Shown here: piece after piece, positions 37,834-45,251 of the stretch | Layout: every line of letters starts with the position of its first letter | Position numbering within the stretch: the first letter of the stretch is position 1 | Source of the DNA: Euryarchaeota archaeon UBA62 | GTDB taxonomy: Archaea; Thermoplasmatota; Poseidoniia; Poseidoniales; Thalassarchaeaceae | Assembly: GCA_002502095.1 (NCBI GenBank) | Contig: DAPJ01000021.1 | Coordinates: forward strand, 29,069-93,068 | Reading direction: 5' to 3' | Length of the DNA stretch: 64,000 nt | The notes under the pieces: generated by a model | Seen by the model: only the letters and a program-made list of their open reading frames with translations | What the model was told of the DNA's origin: nothing | Databases searched by the model: none | Position numbers and translations under genes: made by a program

Positions 37834-37934
37834 GCATACATAATCAACTATCTGTGGTTGGTATTTTCGGGGATTAATTCAAGTGTTGCCTTCCAGAGGG
37901 CCTATTGACTCCCTACGGGAGTCGGGTGCTATAC

Positions 37935-38927
37935 ATGGTCTCCGATGCAGTCGATGAGATGCTGATAACAGCACGCTCAATGAGGAAAATGTATGGCCCT
38001 CACCTAGCTCTAGATGATGTTAGTCTAGACATCCCGCATGGCGCTGTAGGAATTCTAGGTCCAAATGGAGCGGGTAAATCGACATTTTTCAAATGCCTAC
38101 TTGGTCTCATAAAGACAACCTCTGGCTCTGGAAAGGTATTGGGGCACGATATCAGGACTGAAGGGGAGTTGATACGCTCAAAGATTGGATATATGCCCGA
38201 ATATGACTCCCTTGATCCCGGCCTTACTGCAATTGACCAAGTTAGGTATTCTGGTGAGTTATTGGGGATGAACCCAGACGCCGCTACCCAGAGAGCACAT
38301 GAAGTACTGCAATACGTAGGCCTGAAAGATCAGAGATACAGAAAAATCGAGACCTTTAGCACGGGTATGAAACAAGCTGCTAAATTAGCCTGTGCGCTAA
38401 TACATGATCCAGAGATTCTGATTTGCGATGAGCCAACTAATGGATTAGATCAGAGGGCCAGGGAATTCATGCTACAGACTCTAAGAAAGACCGTAATTGA
38501 AGGTGGAAGATCAGTACTGATGAGTAGTCATGTAATGGACGATGTAGAAACCGTATGTGATAGTATTGTGATGATTCACAAAGGCAAGATAGTCGTCCAC
38601 AGGAGTATAGACGACATGGTCAAACAGGTTGAGAAGGAAATAGAAATCTCAGTCTGGGGAGGGGCATCTCAGATGGAAAGTGAACTGTCTTCAAGAGGAC
38701 TTTCTGTCAGGAGGATGGGGAGAAATATGAGGGTCACCAAGGTCGATGAGGATACATATACCGAGATACTGTCATCTGCGGCCAAAGCAGGAGTTCAAGT
38801 TAGGAAAATGACAGAATATGAGCCAGATTTAGAGGATATTTTCCTTCTGATAATGGATAAGCTAGGCGAAGAAGTTAGGGAAACAGGAGAATTGATGACT
38901 TCCGACCATACGGGGGAGGGGCTATGA
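37935..38927 (+). CDS. ABC transporter ATP-binding protein (cluster ATPase 1)
   Basis: Walker A GPNGAGKST, signature FSTGMKQ, Walker B ILICDEPTNGLD. Start trimmed to MVSDAVDE. Confidence 0.88.
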   Translation: MVSDAVDEMLITARSMRKMYGPHLALDDVSLDIPHGAVGILGPNGAGKSTFFKCLLGLIKTTSGSGKVLGHDIRTEGELIRSKIGYMPEYDSLDPGLTAIDQVRYSGELLGMNPDAATQRAHEVLQYVGLKDQRYRKIETFSTGMKQAAKLACALIHDPEILICDEPTNGLDQRAREFMLQTLRKTVIEGGRSVLMSSHVMDDVETVCDSIVMIHKGKIVVHRSIDDMVKQVEKEIEISVWGGASQMESELSSRGLSVRRMGRNMRVTKVDEDTYTEILSSAAKAGVQVRKMTEYEPDLEDIFLLIMDKLGEEVRETGELMTSDHTGEGL

Positions 38928-39937
38928 CTTCCGAACTGGATATCTCTGGTGGCACGACCAGGATGGAATCAGCATTTGGATCTGGAGACGGAGATGATGA
39001 GGCAAAGGCTTCAGTAGCACAGAAAGCCGAAGTTAAAGGCTCAATATTTGAACAGACATATCGTCCATGGAGAGGCTCTTTAGGGCCCAGGTGGGTCAGG
39101 AACTATGCGATCTTCCGACACCATGTCTACGGTTTATTTTCAAGTAAGGGGCACAGATACTATCACCCTATTGTCAGACTCACTATCCTCATAGTATTCC
39201 TATTCTCTCTTTCTCCAGTAGCAATGCTATTTTTGGCATCATTGGGAGGGCAAGGAGGTTTCGGGGAGGTACTTTCCAGGATGTGGGGCATTAACAGGTA
39301 TAACTTGTGGGGCCAAGTACTCGGATTCTTCCCACGTAATCTTTGCATGTGGCCGCTCCTTACTGCACTTGTTGTGGGGGGCATGATTTCAGATGACCGT
39401 AGAAACGGAACGAGTGCCATATACTTCTCAAGACCAGTCAATAGGATAGATTACACGGCTATGAAATATCTTAGTAGCGCAGTAGTATTGGGCTTCGTGA
39501 TAGTTTTCTCTTACATGGTTTACTATACTAGTGCAATAGTCTTGAACGGAGAGGGTTGGGCATTTCTGATCGATACCTTTCCCATCTTCATGGGGGGGCT
39601 GTTAGCGGGAATTCTTTTGGTTCTAACTTACACTTCTATTGGCCTAGCACTTTCCAGTATCAGTCAAAGTAGATTCTTCGCCGCAGTAGCCTTCTTGGCA
39701 GTTATCTACGGGACGAAGATGGTCGCATTCCTAATCGAGTCTACGTTCGAATCATCGATCCTCTATCTATTGAGTCCTTATGATGGTCTGGCCCATATAG
39801 GGCAGTGGCTAGTTGGAATAGAGTCTAATTATGACTATCCTCTCGCCTTTTCAATCGTCTCAATATTACTCATCAATTCCTTATCACTGGCTTTACTCAC
39901 GAGTAGGGTTAGTTCTCTGGAGGTGACTAGAGAATGA
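38924..39937 (+). CDS. ABC-2-type permease-like membrane protein (cluster permease 1)
   Basis: About 6 TM helices after a charged N-terminus (YRPWRGSLGPRW). ATGA overlap with the upstream ATPase. Confidence 0.6.
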   Translation: MTSELDISGGTTRMESAFGSGDGDDEAKASVAQKAEVKGSIFEQTYRPWRGSLGPRWVRNYAIFRHHVYGLFSSKGHRYYHPIVRLTILIVFLFSLSPVAMLFLASLGGQGGFGEVLSRMWGINRYNLWGQVLGFFPRNLCMWPLLTALVVGGMISDDRRNGTSAIYFSRPVNRIDYTAMKYLSSAVVLGFVIVFSYMVYYTSAIVLNGEGWAFLIDTFPIFMGGLLAGILLVLTYTSIGLALSSISQSRFFAAVAFLAVIYGTKMVAFLIESTFESSILYLLSPYDGLAHIGQWLVGIESNYDYPLAFSIVSILLINSLSLALLTSRVSSLEVTRE

Positions 39938-40869
39938 CTGCAAAGGCCCCGGCTGTAATGATTGAATCTGCTTCTAAGTGGTACGGAGAAGTGATAGGAC
40001 TCAATGATGTTTCTCTAGCAATAGATGGCGGAGTTACAGGTGTTTTAGGTCCCAATGGTGCTGGTAAATCAACACTATTCAAACTACTTCTAGGTAGACT
40101 CAAGCCAAGCCAAGGTTCAGTGAGATTGTTCGGTACTGATCCGTGGGAGAGCACGTCTCCCTTCAGAAGAGTAGGTTATGTTAGCGAAACCGAACCATTG
40201 TATGAGTGGATGACTGGATTGGATTTCCTTATGACCATGGCGAGACTGCATGGAATGACTAGGGACGAGGCTAGGGAAAGGGCTGAGCATGTCTTGGAAT
40301 TCGTTGGCTTGAGTGATGTTCGTCACAAAGAAGTTGGCAAGTATAGTAAGGGCATGAGGCAGAGAGTGAAGATTGCCCATGCACTTGTTCATGATCCGGA
40401 TCTGATAATTCTCGACGAGCCCTTACATGGTTGCGACCCTCTCGCCAGAACCAGTATAATGAGCGTTATCAGAGAGCTAGGTAATCGTGGAAAAACTGTA
40501 ATTGTTTCCAGTCACATACTTGAGGAAATAGAGAGAATTACAGAGCAGATTGTGATTCTCCATAATGGTAGACTACTCGCTCTTGGTAATCTACATGCCA
40601 TTAGGGGCCTTCTAGATAAACACCCTCATAGAATTCTACTTGAAACAGAATCTCCTAGAGATTTGGCCAAGGAATTAATTACAAGAAAGCCGATATACGG
40701 TGTTAGGTTTCCAGAGGAGGGTTTTCTGGAAATTCAGACAGGGGACCTCTCCGCCGCACATGAAATTCTTCCTAGCGCAATAATTGAATCTGGAATCAGG
40801 GTCACTGCAGTTGAGAATCCTGATGATAACCTGGACTCACTACTCGGGTATCTCGTAGGAGGTGGATGA
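39934..40869 (+). CDS. ABC transporter ATP-binding protein (cluster ATPase 2)
   Basis: Walker A GPNGAGKST, signature YSKGMRQ, Walker B LIILDEPLHGCD. ATGA overlap with the upstream gene. Confidence 0.88.
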   Translation: MTAKAPAVMIESASKWYGEVIGLNDVSLAIDGGVTGVLGPNGAGKSTLFKLLLGRLKPSQGSVRLFGTDPWESTSPFRRVGYVSETEPLYEWMTGLDFLMTMARLHGMTRDEARERAEHVLEFVGLSDVRHKEVGKYSKGMRQRVKIAHALVHDPDLIILDEPLHGCDPLARTSIMSVIRELGNRGKTVIVSSHILEEIERITEQIVILHNGRLLALGNLHAIRGLLDKHPHRILLETESPRDLAKELITRKPIYGVRFPEEGFLEIQTGDLSAAHEILPSAIIESGIRVTAVENPDDNLDSLLGYLVGGG

Positions 40870-42534
40870 TTGGACGTTCAGGGAAGGGATCTTTCAGAAA
40901 CAGTCTGGACCAGACTGGATAGGAAGGCAGGCGCTGTGATTGAGTTAACTATCAGGCAACTCAGACATAAAATATCTACTTGGGTAGTTTTAGCATTGGG
41001 AACGATCCTGATGGTCCTACTTCTTGCATTCTATGTCGACTCAATAAGAGAAGGATTCGAATCAATAGATAACGATGGAGACAGTGTGGATCAGGATAGA
41101 GATGGATACCCCCTCGGGCAAGAGAGAAAATATGGGACTAGTGACTGGAACGGAGAAGAGTACCCAGGGTCGGGAACATACGTCTACGAGGGAGAAATAG
41201 ACTGGAATGATGAGAATCGAGAAATTTCAGGAAACAAGACATGGGAGGGAGTCACTCTCCTTGATGCTACTTGGATAGATACCGATTACAAGGGAGGGCA
41301 ATGGGACTATGTTATCGACTGGGACGATGTCACGGATTGTCCAGATACACGAGGAGAGTTATTTGTAGATTGGATCCCCGATTTCGCGACAGCATGTCAA
41401 CTAGAAGACGGTACATATGCCACTAATGGGAAGTTCAATGCAGAAGGAAACATCACAGTTCCAAGGGACTACTTTCTATCCTACGGCTATGTCACTGGAA
41501 TATTTGTCGTCCCGAAAGATCCCAAGGAGATGTACATAGATGAGGATGATATCGATTGGGATGGTTCTGCAGGAAGCCAGGGAGTCGACGATGACGGAGA
41601 CTGCCTTAGAACGGATTGGTTCACTCAATTTGATGACTCAGGGAATCAGATGTGGTGGGAAGAGCCACATAGGCCAGACGCAAATGGAAATGGCATCCAA
41701 TGTGACGTTATTTGGGTGATCGACTCACGAACCGGAGAGGTCATTTCTATCAGTGCCGACTCTTCCGTGGATGAAGATCCAGTAGACGAAAATTATGCGG
41801 GTGAAGCCAGCCATAGGACCTTTGTAATAGCGACAGGAAAGATAGCATTCGTCCTTCTCCTAGGCCTATTCCTGCCTCTCTTCCTTTCTTTGGGATTAGT
41901 TCGAGACGAGACTGAGAGGGGAACATTACACTACCTACTTTCCAAGCCAATTCACAGGGGGGAGTTCATACTTTATCGTGTTCTAGGATATCTAGCGGTT
42001 GTCTCAGTTTTTGTTCTAGCTTTATCTTTGGTAATGGGATTAATCACATCGATAATAGGGCCAGGAGAAAGCCTGCTCAGAGTGGGAGACCTGCCCGTTT
42101 GGCTTGGAATCGCTATTGCTACAATACTTGTTTTGGCAGCATATGGTTCTCTGTTCAACACTATAGGGCTACTCTTGCCGAAGTACGGAGTATACCTGTG
42201 TATTGTGATTGGAGTATGGGAATTTGCTATGGGATTCACTACTCTTATTTCTCCCAGTTCTTCGATTGCCACACTTTCTGTATCTCACTGGGGCCTACAG
42301 CTAATCGACTCAATTGTCATGGTTTCTTGGCCCGATACTCTTCAATTTTCTCAGATGTCATCAGCCTTCGGGCTAGCGACTGGATTAGAATGGATTTGGT
42401 CACCTCCGGTTCATACTCTAAATTCTAGTAATGCATATTTAGGTATCCTCACTTCGGTAACCATGCTCATAGGAATCTCTGTTTCCATGATAGGCATTGG
42501 TAGTGCAGTCTTCAGCAAGAGAGAAATAATGTGA
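40870..42534 (+). CDS. ABC-2-type permease-like protein with large extracytoplasmic Asp-rich (calcium-binding-like) domain (cluster permease 2)
   Basis: TM1, then about 300 aa of soluble domain with DxDxDG-type motifs (DNDGDSVDQDRDGYP, GVDDDGDC, DANGNGIQCD), then about 5 TM helices. TTG start abuts the upstream stop. Confidence 0.55.
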   Translation: MDVQGRDLSETVWTRLDRKAGAVIELTIRQLRHKISTWVVLALGTILMVLLLAFYVDSIREGFESIDNDGDSVDQDRDGYPLGQERKYGTSDWNGEEYPGSGTYVYEGEIDWNDENREISGNKTWEGVTLLDATWIDTDYKGGQWDYVIDWDDVTDCPDTRGELFVDWIPDFATACQLEDGTYATNGKFNAEGNITVPRDYFLSYGYVTGIFVVPKDPKEMYIDEDDIDWDGSAGSQGVDDDGDCLRTDWFTQFDDSGNQMWWEEPHRPDANGNGIQCDVIWVIDSRTGEVISISADSSVDEDPVDENYAGEASHRTFVIATGKIAFVLLLGLFLPLFLSLGLVRDETERGTLHYLLSKPIHRGEFILYRVLGYLAVVSVFVLALSLVMGLITSIIGPGESLLRVGDLPVWLGIAIATILVLAAYGSLFNTIGLLLPKYGVYLCIVIGVWEFAMGFTTLISPSSSIATLSVSHWGLQLIDSIVMVSWPDTLQFSQMSSAFGLATGLEWIWSPPVHTLNSSNAYLGILTSVTMLIGISVSMIGIGSAVFSKREIM

Positions 42535-42538
42535 TAAC

Positions 42539-43735
42539 ATGCTTCAAGAGAATACTCATTTCAAGGGCGACTTCTCATCCCTGTGGAGGCTTGACGTCAT
42601 GCCTCCTATTCGTCGCTTATCATGGTGGTGGTGGTGGGCACTAATACTCATCCCAGACCCCGATAGGCCGGGTAGATCAAAGCAATTGATGATATTATGG
42701 TCAACAAAAGAAACGCCCGCAATAAGAGTGAGTGGGCACTGGTGGAAGCCCGGAGGTAGGATGTTTGTGGATGACCACGGAGGTCATGTTATTCCCGGAA
42801 TGGTCTGTGCTTGGTGGTTTGATGGAGAGAAAATGTTTGAGCCTCTGGTTATGAGGGAATGCAGGATGGCCAGTATTTCAGATACACATCCTCTGTGGCC
42901 AGGGGAGGGCAAAGGAGAAGGAGCAGGAGCGGTAATACCACTGATTCCTCAAGATATGTCAATAGGAATGGCACCCGGAAACAAGTCCTTCTGGATAAAT
43001 CTCTCAAGTGATGAAGAGGCAGTAGCCAGAGGCGCACCCAGTAAGTTCGAAGCCGAACTAACTCCTTGGTGGGGGCCTCCTAGTGAATTAACATACAAGA
43101 ATAATGAGTACTTCTTGGGCATGGGATATGATATCCTCAGGTTACAGGCTACAAAGTGCAGGCTAGTTGTTGATGGTGAGGTTTTGGAGGGAACGGGCTA
43201 TTTCCAGAAGGTTTCCGTTCAAGCGCCTTCATTTCCATGGTTTTGGGGGATGTTACACTTCAATGATGGATCATATCTTGATTGGTTTATGCCACACGTC
43301 ACACCGATGTGGTCAGCGAGAGATGACAAGCCTTGGAGGTTGAGGGATTTCTTCCGTTCTCCAAATATAGGCACAGGCGTTTTCCAGGATAGAAAGACCG
43401 GAAAGACTCAGAATTTCGATAACTGCACTGTTGAGCTTTGCAAGCAAAGCTCTGAAGATGCATTACTGGATGATAATGGAAATATTCTCCCGGAATTCAG
43501 AGTCAAGGTTTGGAATGACGACTCAAGCGCTACTATCAGAGTTAGGGCAGTAAGTAGAGCAAGATGGATTTTCGACCAACCAACTAGGGCTTCATGGGTC
43601 AGTCACCTAACCTACAATGAATATCCACTGGAGGTACTCTCAATCACATTTGAGGATTCCGAGGGAATTAGGACAGAGCAGGACTATGAATGGATTCATG
43701 GAAATGCAGAACATGCATGGGGAGTTCTACATTAG
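42539..43735 (+). CDS. Hypothetical protein, possibly tocopherol-cyclase / CrtC (AttH)-like fold
   Basis: GTGYFQKVSVQAPSFPWFWGMLHFNDGSYLDWF resembles the G.GY.EK.WG..FP..WFW motif of tocopherol cyclases and carotenoid hydratases as I recall it. N-terminal LSWWWWWALILIP. Assignment is weak. Confidence 0.3.
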   Translation: MLQENTHFKGDFSSLWRLDVMPPIRRLSWWWWWALILIPDPDRPGRSKQLMILWSTKETPAIRVSGHWWKPGGRMFVDDHGGHVIPGMVCAWWFDGEKMFEPLVMRECRMASISDTHPLWPGEGKGEGAGAVIPLIPQDMSIGMAPGNKSFWINLSSDEEAVARGAPSKFEAELTPWWGPPSELTYKNNEYFLGMGYDILRLQATKCRLVVDGEVLEGTGYFQKVSVQAPSFPWFWGMLHFNDGSYLDWFMPHVTPMWSARDDKPWRLRDFFRSPNIGTGVFQDRKTGKTQNFDNCTVELCKQSSEDALLDDNGNILPEFRVKVWNDDSSATIRVRAVSRARWIFDQPTRASWVSHLTYNEYPLEVLSITFEDSEGIRTEQDYEWIHGNAEHAWGVLH

Positions 43736-43743
43736 GTGTCGTT

Positions 43744-44652
43744 ATGAGTGAAATAATTTCCAGCTTCAGATCAAAATTGGACCTTGATTCAGTAAGAGAA
43801 AGGTTCCCAGAGATTTCCGACTCAGAGACTCCAATATGGCATGGAAGCCCAGCTTTAATGTCCATGTCTGGCAAATATGCTCTAGCTGGATTAGTATTAG
43901 TAATCCACCTGGTATTCTACTGGGCCGCTAAATATGATACTGTTATCGAGGGGGAGGCTAATCTGAATCTGGTAGTTGGACTGGCCAAAGCAATCATAGA
44001 TATTTCGGGTGTTTTGGGATTCGCAATAATGATGCTACTGGTCGCAAAAATAAATCATTATCTCAATACATCCACATCAGGGGGGTGGACGACATCTTGG
44101 TTGCTCATTAACGGATTAATTCCCTTATCTTGGTACGCTATAACACTCATAAACTCAATTTTAATATTTATTGGATATCATGGATTTGATAATTTTATTG
44201 GAGAGCACATACCAGTATGGAAAGATTGGTATTATCTCTTTCTAGGGGTATTTTCTTCCATCTCTGCCGTGGCCATGACTGCACATTACAGCAATGCATT
44301 CCAGTATGCTATTACAGATAAGAGGGTCCATATTAGGAAAAAGTTCCTTTACTTCGATACTAGTGTGGTTGGCATCCCATTTGAGAAGGTCGAGAATCTA
44401 AAGGTTGAGCCTTCGATCATTGGGAGAATATTTGGTTTCGGAAATATACATGTGATTACTGACGGAATGCAATCAAATATCTCCGATGATAATGACTCGG
44501 TTAAACAATCAGGTTTGTTAAATCCATTGAGCTGGATTTTCATCCAGAGAAAAAACAATCCTTCTTCTCAAGATCCAAGTGAATGTCTTTACTGTATCAA
44601 GGAACCTATGTCTGTTTACGCATTAATCAATGAGTTGATAGACAATTCATAG
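43744..44652 (+). CDS. Polytopic membrane protein with C-terminal bPH_2 (DUF304) domain
   Basis: Several TM helices, then ITDKRVHIRKKFLYFDTSVVGIPFEKVENLKVEPSIIGRIFGFGNIHVITDG. Start trimmed to MSEIISS. Confidence 0.55.
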   Translation: MSEIISSFRSKLDLDSVRERFPEISDSETPIWHGSPALMSMSGKYALAGLVLVIHLVFYWAAKYDTVIEGEANLNLVVGLAKAIIDISGVLGFAIMMLLVAKINHYLNTSTSGGWTTSWLLINGLIPLSWYAITLINSILIFIGYHGFDNFIGEHIPVWKDWYYLFLGVFSSISAVAMTAHYSNAFQYAITDKRVHIRKKFLYFDTSVVGIPFEKVENLKVEPSIIGRIFGFGNIHVITDGMQSNISDDNDSVKQSGLLNPLSWIFIQRKNNPSSQDPSECLYCIKEPMSVYALINELIDNS

Positions 44653-44708: not shown

Positions 44709-45251
44709 ATGGAAGACACAGTAACTCAAGCAGCCCAACTAATCACAAAAGGAGATTTCATGGGGGCGATGGAAATTTTCGAGGCTTTTTCGAACGCCAA
44801 TCCTGACGATCCAGCAGGTTTCCATGGCTGGGCAGAAGCGGCTCTTTTTGAGATTCAGGCCAATGGAAATCTAGATGACAAAGGAAATGATAGGATTAAC
44901 GAGGGCCAGATAGCTGCCTATTTCAGAAAAGCGTCGTCCATGGATCCGAAGAACCCTGACTACCTCGCCTCCTATGCAAATGCTCTACTCGAGTTCGACA
45001 GAATGCCAATGGCAGTTCGCGAATTCAGGAAGCTGAAGTCACTAGGAGACGAGTTAGACGACGTAGATGTCTCATTCCACTTGTATGAAGCCGCCAAGGC
45101 GTTGATTGAATTGGTAGATATGAAGACAAATTATGACAGGAGTAATCCCAACGCTCGGCAATTTATCCCAATAGCTTTGGAGTTCGCGATGTTAGGTCTT
45201 GGCTTTTCGTCAGTAGACGAGGCGATGGAGTACCTAGTTCCAGAGGAATAG
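44709..45251 (+). CDS. Hypothetical helical-repeat (TPR-like) protein
   Basis: All-helical composition with TPR-like A/Y/L spacing (DYLASYANALLEFDRMPMAVREF). No specific family. Confidence 0.35.
   Translation: MEDTVTQAAQLITKGDFMGAMEIFEAFSNANPDDPAGFHGWAEAALFEIQANGNLDDKGNDRINEGQIAAYFRKASSMDPKNPDYLASYANALLEFDRMPMAVREFRKLKSLGDELDDVDVSFHLYEAAKALIELVDMKTNYDRSNPNARQFIPIALEFAMLGLGFSSVDEAMEYLVPEE

Follow-up and report, generated by a model that had tools for sequence, protein, structure and literature searches.

A type V-like ABC-2 exporter cassette followed by a predicted AttH-fold protein and a bPH_2 membrane protein in Poseidoniales: a candidate lipid-handling gene cluster

Introduction

Do six genes that lie end to end on one strand, four of them encoding the parts of a pump and two of them not, build a single machine, or do they simply share a row? 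The question is raised by positions 37905-44652 of a 64,000-nucleotide stretch of contig DAPJ01000021.1 (the window; all coordinates given here for it are on its + strand), which comes from a metagenome-assembled genome (MAG) of the Thalassarchaeaceae (Marine Group II, Poseidoniales). The cluster encodes two ATP-binding cassette (ABC) ATPases, A1 and A2, alternating with two ABC-2 permeases, P1 and P2, and behind them a 398-aa soluble protein, X398, and a polytopic membrane protein, PH. An earlier note on this DNA had read the six genes as one operon specifying a heteromeric machine of fixed stoichiometry, perhaps for the export or remodelling of a lipid, isoprenoid or surface component. Marine Group II archaea are uncultured and are among the most abundant planktonic archaea of the surface ocean; their membrane lipids are still debated, and this debate bears on lipid-based ocean temperature proxies.

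Our analysis partly supports the earlier interpretation. The packing of the genes and their domain assignments stand, and the position of X398 immediately behind the pump genes is kept throughout the Poseidoniales. Outside this order the block comes apart, and a single heteromeric machine is not established. The reading toward which we lean is a lipid-handling one in which the pumps are accompanied by a cytoplasmic isoprenoid-binding or -modifying protein.

Results

The six genes form a tightly packed unit

Direct reading of the sequence bears out the six genes and all five of their junctions. Six + strand open reading frames (ORFs) of 340, 337, 311, 554, 398 and 302 (or 320) aa occupy 37905-44652: A1 (37905..38927), P1 (38924..39937), A2 (39934..40869), P2 (40870..42534), X398 (42539..43735) and PH (43744..44652). 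The A1/P1 and P1/A2 junctions are 4-nt overlaps of the ATGA type (-4 nt; 38924-38927 and 39934-39937), A2 and P2 abut as TGA/TTG at 40867-40872 (0 nt), a 4-nt gap separates the end of P2 at 42534 from the ATG of X398 at 42539, and an 8-nt gap separates the end of X398 at 43735 from the ATG of PH at 43744. The start of PH is here placed at ATG 43744 and not at the longest-ORF ATG at 43690. GGAGG-like Shine-Dalgarno sites lie ahead of the P1, A2 and P2 starts.

Two further starts deserve comment. The true start of A1 is more likely to be ATG 37935 than TTG 37905, because alignments with orthologues start at residues 10-17; this choice would widen the spacer between A1 and the upstream TGT gene to about 100 nt. 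At the A2/P2 junction an out-of-frame ATG at 40866 and the A2 stop together read ATGA, so that the junction looks like the two overlaps before it. The reading frame that is conserved in P2 nevertheless begins at TTG 40870, a non-ATG start.

Between the cluster genes we found no intergenic runs of five or more T and no TATA-like hexamers, and inspection for promoters and terminators was uninformative; the main text of a paper on the Sapelo Island MGII metatranscriptome makes no mention of the cluster genes. Judged by the junction lengths together with the lack of intergenic T-runs and TATA-like hexamers, the six genes are a tightly packed unit and are probably co-transcribed, in keeping with the single operon that the earlier note had proposed. 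Crude longest-ORF calling recovers about five runs of at least five consecutive tight junctions in the 1.3-Mb assembly; the compaction of the cluster is notable, not unique. The domain calls hold as well: both ATPases match ABC_tran, both permeases match ABC-2 models, the last gene matches bPH_2 and the 398-aa protein matches nothing.

X398 follows the pump genes throughout the Poseidoniales and in no outgroup locus examined

Nine loci from three Poseidoniales families share the order TGT-A1-P1-A2-P2-X398-PH-TPR-TruA; one of the nine, L014, is cut off at P2. The distance between P2 and X398 ranges from -4 to +27 nt in all eight Poseidoniales loci outside the window, again in three families. 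Across the order the X398-PH gap is 8-205 nt, and the outer spacers (TGT-A1, PH-TPR and TPR-TruA) are 15-211 nt. X398 itself is present in 41 of 41 relatives, and every further Poseidoniales genome that was sampled has it too.

Beyond the Poseidoniales the pump genes and X398 have separate histories. P1 orthologues (E<1e-60) are restricted to the order, and distant P1-like genes occur in outgroup cassettes: five other Thermoplasmatota loci, and one truncated contig, carry an ATPase-permease-ATPase-permease cassette with P1-like and P2-like permeases. The second ATPase of these cassettes is 38-47% identical to A2, and in a local hidden Markov model (HMM) search around the outgroup loci P1- or P2-like genes turned up in cassette loci only. 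To judge from these relatives, the four-gene cassette is an old archaeal module. Its juxtaposition with X398 is a Poseidoniales innovation. Since each is found without the other outside the order, the pump and X398 are not obligate partners. The gene-neighbourhood comparison that the earlier note had called for therefore gives a divided answer: the six genes are adjacent in all Poseidoniales loci, and no such adjacency is seen in the 67 X398 loci and five cassette loci of the outgroups. The loss of synteny in relatives that the note had named as counting against a common unit is thus found in part, with the block splitting outside the Poseidoniales.

X398 is predicted to have an AttH-like double-barrel fold

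X398 (42539..43735) is a soluble protein that no Pfam model covers. It contains 6.3% Trp, including a run of five consecutive TGG codons at 42623-42637. Profile searches against Pfam, NCBIfam and the PDB gave no sequence match, and hmmscan of X398 and 24 family members against Pfam at E<=10 matched no family. The tocopherol-cyclase motif on which the earlier note had remarked did not survive this comparison: PF14249 is unmatched at E<=10, and the likeness amounts to one short motif. The CrtC model PF07143 likewise finds nothing in the source genome or in any sampled Poseidoniales genome.

The structural comparison is far more informative. An AlphaFold2 model of X398 is all-beta (pLDDT 83, pTM 0.88), and the top 12 Foldseek matches in the PDB are all AttH-fold proteins (probability 1.00, E 2e-8 to 2e-6), led by the putative AttH 2ICH and including kievitone hydratase (7A0T/7A0Q) and the decalin-forming Diels-Alderases/pericyclases (Phm7, Fsa2, CghA and 7DMO). 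The entries 7E5U, 7E5T and 6KBC are among these matches at probability 1.00; the next matches, outer-membrane barrels, fall below probability 0.3. TM-scores to AttH-fold proteins are about 0.45, which suggests a different inter-domain geometry in the X398 model. On this evidence X398 is predicted to belong to the AttH-like fold superfamily, with two orthogonally packed lipocalin-like barrels. The earlier description of the protein as CrtC-like is therefore upheld at the level of fold (Foldseek probability 1.00) and fails at the level of sequence (no Pfam match; hhalign 11%). In the viral structure library BFVD there is a single AttH-fold match, A0A1V0SB04, an uncharacterised Catovirus CTV1 protein, which is uninformative.

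A hydropathy scan shows no transmembrane (TM)-like hydrophobic segment in X398, and no signal peptide is seen by inspection; canonical AttH-like proteins of other Thermoplasmatota, unlike X398, carry N-terminal signal or TM regions. Mean column identity across the Poseidoniales is 69%, which points to strong purifying selection. Across the broad family E361, E391, Y221 and Y359 are invariant, as are Trp residues. We infer that Glu361, Glu391, Tyr221, Tyr359 and the Trp cluster are candidate catalytic residues, and such a set of invariant acidic and aromatic side chains would suit carbocation chemistry.

The X398 family is patchy and almost exclusively archaeal

The family comprises 286 clusters among 1.84 billion representatives. 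Homologues in species-representative genomes come from Thermoplasmata, Methanomassiliicoccales, Methanofastidiosia, ANME-1, Halobacteriota, Hydrothermarchaeales, Altiarchaeota and several DPANN phyla, and among roughly 306 other Thermoplasmatota genomes 24 have X398. The family is patchy and almost exclusively archaeal. A locus labelled Chloroflexota (L107, contig DAOWAC010000028.1) carries a helix-turn-helix (HTH) gene, an X398 paralogue and a UbiA gene that are 83-89% identical to those of the DPANN cluster described next (L090), and this contig is probably archaeal and misbinned.

That cluster lies at L090:4571-9880 on contig JAFCCL010000006.1, a Ca. Iainarchaeum MAG, where an HTH regulator, the tetraether synthase Tes (652.8 bits against a cut-off of 450), two X398 paralogues and a UbiA prenyltransferase stand on one strand, with UbiA overlapping the second paralogue by 13 nt. 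We take this DPANN row as a candidate for a lipid-modification cluster. UbiA also adjoins an X398 homologue in L051 and L107. More generally, no neighbour dominates outside the Poseidoniales when 336 neighbouring proteins are clustered and 102 immediate neighbours are tallied by Pfam: the leading families among the 102 are M32 peptidase (4), GT2 (4), UbiA (3) and radical S-adenosylmethionine (SAM) proteins (3), and ABC_tran is outside the first 25.

Two other settings were seen. In Methanophagales/ANME-1 and related MAGs (L084:5045-7292, L101:2750-4996 and L109:926-2549) the gene immediately 5' of the X398 homologue, in the same orientation, is aminomutase-like and of the KamA family of radical SAM proteins. 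In Thermoplasmatota genome G060 (L041:1-2709) a canonical secreted CrtC/AttH-like protein of 475 aa is encoded divergently beside an ABC ATPase gene, a pair that may represent, in an archaeon, the AttH-ABC pairing known from bacteria; the same genome also carries an X398 homologue elsewhere.

Two canonical ATPases and two ordinary ABC-2 permeases

A1 is an ABC ATPase of DrrA/GldA-like type with a DrrA1-3_C C-terminal domain (ABC_tran 3e-31, DrrA1-3_C 2.5e-6), and A2 is its paralogue (ABC_tran 1e-29; 40% identity between the two). Walker A, the signature (FSTGM in A1), Walker B with its catalytic Glu and the H-loop are intact in both, and both look catalytically competent by these motifs. As both nucleotide-binding domains (NBDs) are canonical, there is no asymmetric site that would argue for a heterodimer. 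Curated NCBIfam subfamily models (DrrA, GldA/GldF, NodI and PmtA/PmtC) all score well under their cut-offs: the two ATPases reach 195 and 189 bits against 402.6 for GldA and, against the Pmt ATPase models NF047565/NF047568 (cut-offs 350/375 bits), 134/103 for A1 and 106/101 for A2. The comparison with characterised ABC-2 subfamilies proposed in the earlier note hence yields no clean fit, and with all scores below cut-off no characterised substrate class can be assigned.

P1 is a 337-aa permease with a cytoplasmic N-terminal extension of ~85 aa and five hydrophobic segments in a crude hydropathy scan. It matches ABC2_membrane_5 (PF13346, 4e-8) and ABC2_membrane_2 (PF12679, 2e-7) above their gathering scores, and GldF weakly (29.7 bits against a cut-off of 288.5). 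P2, of 554 aa and with a TTG start, is laid out as a first TM segment, an acidic ectodomain of ~270 aa and a C-terminal type V TM domain; residues 308-552 match ABC2_membrane_2 (PF12679, 4e-11), again above the gathering score. The two permeases are distant paralogues (24% identity). Foldseek with an AlphaFold2 model of P2 (pLDDT 71) retrieves ABCG25, ABCG5/8, ABCG1/2, PmtCD (9Q2N, probability 0.90) and NosY (7O0Y) at probabilities of 0.9-1.0, with E values of only 5e-3 to 0.1 and TM-scores kept low by the ectodomain. P1 and P2, which had been called atypical, are on these matches ordinary ABC-2 permeases of the predicted type V (ABCG/PmtD/NosY-like) fold, a fold seen for the P2 model.

The extracytoplasmic domain with DxDxDG motifs that had been noticed in P2 is there, at about 270 aa (residues 57-325). 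It is 16% Asp with a net charge of -47 and holds three DxDxDG-like motifs where we estimate that roughly 0.2 would be expected from composition. Its loops D67-P81, D240-C245 and N272-D279, which resemble calcium sites, and four Cys are invariant in 31 Thalassarchaeaceae homologues, a pattern that fits an extracytoplasmic, disulfide-bonded domain that probably binds calcium. No fold was identified for it, the whole-chain Foldseek comparison being dominated by the TM domain. P2 varies from 385 to 555 aa across the Poseidoniales as the ectodomain shrinks from about 270 to roughly 100 aa. In the outgroup cassettes L032, L034 and L035 a large insertion lies in the first, P1-like permease (560-630 aa) and not in the second; the ectodomain seems to have been gained independently or to have moved between the two permeases.

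Gene order does not specify one machine

The fixed-stoichiometry heteromeric machine of the earlier note is not established. The best-studied operon with the order ATPase-permease-ATPase-permease, pmtABCD, specifies a pair of separate transporters, PmtAB and PmtCD (PMC9974410), and neither NBD of our cluster is degenerate. All four pump genes always occur together in the outgroup cassettes, and this constant co-occurrence fits an A1A2P1P2 heterotetramer or two cooperating pumps alike. Gene order alone is no ground for reading a heterotetramer and, by analogy, the Pmt precedent argues against assuming one; we regard this point as new.

PH and the downstream TPR gene

PH (43744..44652) is a 302-aa polytopic membrane protein, and the bPH_2 domain that had been placed at its C-terminal end is confirmed by Pfam (PF03703, 1.5e-8, 35.2 bits against a cut-off of 22). 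A hydropathy scan gives three hydrophobic segments before this domain, and a fourth is read by eye. PH evolves fast, with orthologues just 23-37% identical within the Poseidoniales. A local HMM search found no PH-like gene beside outgroup X398 or cassette loci; there is one weak match 7 kb from X398 in L081.

Beyond PH, after a 56-nt spacer, lies TPR180 (44709..45251, + strand), a 180-aa TPR protein with weak TPR_19/TPR_14 matches whose position is kept in all nine Poseidoniales loci (L011-L019). The spacer is rich in GC, contains a GGGAG site and lacks T-runs and TATA-like hexamers. TPR180 may be in the same transcript as the cluster; its membership of the unit is uncertain.

Discussion

The reading we tentatively prefer, and which we consider possible, is that this locus encodes a pair of type V exporters for hydrophobic cargo, co-expressed with a cytoplasmic protein, X398, that binds or modifies isoprenoids, and with PH as an accessory. 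By homology and predicted fold, the four leading genes are an archaeal ABC-2 (type V) exporter module of ancient origin, consisting of the paralogous pairs A1-P1 and A2-P2. Pumps of this fold typically draw hydrophobic or amphipathic cargo from the membrane and then expel it, and the products of the cassette may do the same, with P2 adding a disulfide-bonded, probably calcium-binding acidic ectodomain on the outer face. Only in Poseidoniales is this module joined by a cytoplasmic X398 and a polytopic PH, encoded directly behind P2, the bPH_2 domain of PH probably being cytoplasmic. We envision that X398 binds an isoprenoid chain, whether this belongs to a membrane lipid or to a quinone-like compound, that it probably hydrates or cyclises this chain by acid catalysis and that what it makes or carries would then pass to the pumps. 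By analogy with bPH_2 proteins in Firmicutes peptide export, PH could be a membrane-side accessory. A lipid-handling role shared by pumps, X398 and PH is plausible. For X398 an isoprenoid-lipid role is supported by the Tes/UbiA context, by the AttH-like hydratase Hgs, by the near-exclusively archaeal distribution and by the invariant Glu, Tyr and Trp residues.

Several observations pull the other way. The flanking genes TGT, TPR and TruA, which are unrelated to the cluster, are equally syntenic in the Poseidoniales, so that synteny across the order says little for a shared function. In the sister family (f4) the cassette is present and X398 is missing, neither X398 nor PH lies next to the outgroup cassettes in any of five loci, no ABC cassette adjoins X398 in any of the 67 outgroup X398 loci, and a P1-like gene (E<1e-8) is missing altogether from 17 of the 24 X398-positive outgroup genomes. 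Tight spacing is common in the source genome, where 41% of same-strand neighbours are <=10 nt apart by crude longest-ORF calling. A comparison of the X398 family with canonical archaeal CrtC/AttH-like proteins gives an insignificant hhalign probability of 10.9% (it pairs GTAYFQK..PWYWG with G.AWIDHQWGN, an alignment on which we do not rely). The lipid-gene context of X398 extends to three of 67 loci, two of them near-identical, and canonical Tes above the NCBIfam cut-off is found in none of 61 Poseidoniales genomes.

The last result bears on the choice of substrate. A Tes-made glycerol dialkyl glycerol tetraether (GDGT) or other tetraether was considered as the substrate of X398 in Poseidoniales and rejected, since Tes is absent from 61 of 61 genomes. 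Seven of the 61 encode a Tes-like radical SAM protein of ~500 aa that matches the N-terminal two thirds of the model at 214-234 bits; in the remaining genomes the radical SAM matches are generic only.

Much of this could be accommodated by the main rival explanation, frozen synteny, in which the ABC genes are a self-sufficient housekeeping exporter and X398 and PH are independent genes that, like TGT, TPR180 and TruA, stand in a compact polycistronic row of streamlined Poseidoniales genomes. Conservation of the nine-gene TGT-to-TruA order in three families is what it predicts, as are cassettes that do without X398 and PH in other Thermoplasmatota and the sister family, X398 genes that do without the cassette in 67 of 67 outgroup loci with no neighbour family exceeding four of 102 flanking genes, and a genome in which such short junctions are routine. 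It fares less well with the spacing inside the block: the P2-X398 gap does not leave the range -4 to +27 nt in any Poseidoniales family, against 15 to 211 nt for the outer spacers, and the genome has about five runs this tight. Furthermore, the pairing of a hydrophobe-binding fold with a hydrophobe exporter recurs in bacteria (PMC2954199). We regard frozen synteny as somewhat unlikely. If it is nevertheless true, the locus holds an ordinary exporter beside two unrelated orphans.

Another possibility is membrane defence or amphipathic-peptide export, with two separate homodimeric pumps (A1 with P1, A2 with P2) and a bPH_2 helper that would rid the bilayer of amphipathic peptides or other membrane-active compounds, and in which X398 would only sequester hydrophobes or be unrelated. 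The argument for it is one of analogy. The pmtABCD operon has the same order and encodes two transporters, of which PmtCD takes amphipathic peptides out of the membrane and gives protection from LL-37 (PMC9974410); the PmtCD structure 9Q2N matches the P2 model at probability 0.90, and the PmtA and PmtC models match both ATPases, below cut-off. Export of a leaderless bacteriocin in Firmicutes depends on the bPH_2 proteins DdE and DdF, whose genes lie beside ABC genes (PMC8657885). Set against these parallels are ATPase scores of 101-134 bits where the Pmt cut-offs are 350-375, and the absence of PH beside outgroup cassettes. No small peptide gene was noticed in or near the cluster, although no systematic search was made, and X398 is left without a role. 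We consider peptide export improbable. A mechanotransducing surface machine, in which ATP hydrolysis would drive a calcium-binding P2 ectodomain to act on the S-layer or another envelope component as in GldAFG, NosDFY or FtsEX, appears very unlikely, for although the ATPases and P1 have GldA and GldF as their best or near-best NCBIfam matches, NosY (7O0Y) matches P2 structurally, homologues are named 'multi-copper enzyme maturation permease' and the ectodomain has invariant acidic loops and paired cysteines, the Gld scores are far below cut-off (GldA 195/189 against 402.6; GldF 29.7 against 288.5), the ectodomain is poorly conserved as a whole (about 270 down to roughly 100 aa) and outgroups enlarge P1 instead, and the cluster has no NosD-, NosL- or GldG-like partner.

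Returning to the lipid-handling reading, a bolder form of it can be stated, to which we give little credence at present: X398 would found a new, almost exclusively archaeal family of cytoplasmic AttH-fold isoprenoid hydratases or cyclases, co-translated in Marine Group II with a type V lipid exporter or flippase that places a modified (e.g. hydroxylated) lipid in the outer leaflet or envelope. Whichever form is considered, X398 is of interest in its own right as a protein found in every Poseidoniales genome examined, strongly constrained, unannotated and with the predicted fold of isoprenoid hydratases. If X398 does modify membrane isoprenoids, it would be a concrete, testable gene that could mark a lipid trait of Marine Group II. 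That AttH-fold proteins go together with ABC transporters in bacteria was already known (PMC2954199). What our analysis adds is that the six-gene unit decomposes outside the Poseidoniales, that the X398 family is almost only archaeal and that X398 paralogues lie between Tes and UbiA in one lineage.

Comparison with known systems

A close parallel to the pump genes is pmtABCD of Staphylococcus aureus, the phenol-soluble modulin exporters, which has the same gene order and the same ABC-2/type V permease fold as the cassette, clears the membrane of hydrophobic or amphipathic cargo (PMC9974410) and contributes PmtCD to the Foldseek matches of P2. Unlike pmtABCD, the cluster described here has an archaeal host, a large acidic ectodomain in P2, AttH-fold and bPH_2 genes after the pump genes and ATPases that score far below the Pmt cut-offs; nor are peptide substrate genes evident in it, though they were not systematically sought. 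NosFY and GldAFG provide the best family-level sequence matches (GldA, GldF and the NosY-type naming of COG1277), all below cut-off, together with NosY as a structural match. Unlike these systems, the cluster has no NosD, NosL, NosZ or GldG partner, and it has two ATPases and two permeases in place of one each.

For PH the relevant comparison is with YdbS/YdbT and DdE/DdF, which likewise combine a TM bundle with bPH_2. Unlike these proteins, PH has a single bPH_2 after several TM segments, diverges fast, stands in an archaeal context and has no partner YdbS-like gene.

LolD-like ABC proteins are type VII systems, not ABC-2. It is such LolD-like proteins that are reported as the ABC partners of AttH-family genes in bacteria (PMC2954199). 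Bacterial AttH/NE1406 (2ICH; PF07143 plus a lipocalin-like C-domain) has its two orthogonally packed barrels in common with X398. X398 has no sequence-level match to this family and lacks the N-terminal signal or TM regions of the canonical AttH-like proteins in other Thermoplasmatota, and its association with ABC genes is confined to one archaeal order. The fold of X398 is also that of the AttH-like isoprenoid hydratases, among them CrtC (carotenoid 1,2-hydratase), kievitone hydratase (7A0T) and archaeal Hgs. Hgs makes hydroxy-GDGTs in archaea, an instance of this fold acting on archaeal membrane lipids; its homologues are reported mainly from Methanobacteriota and Bathyarchaeota, and it pairs with the desaturase Ted (bioRxiv 10.1101/2025.10.20.683597). 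X398 is missed by the CrtC Pfam model, unlike CrtC, and where Hgs pairs with Ted, X398 adjoins an ABC pump.

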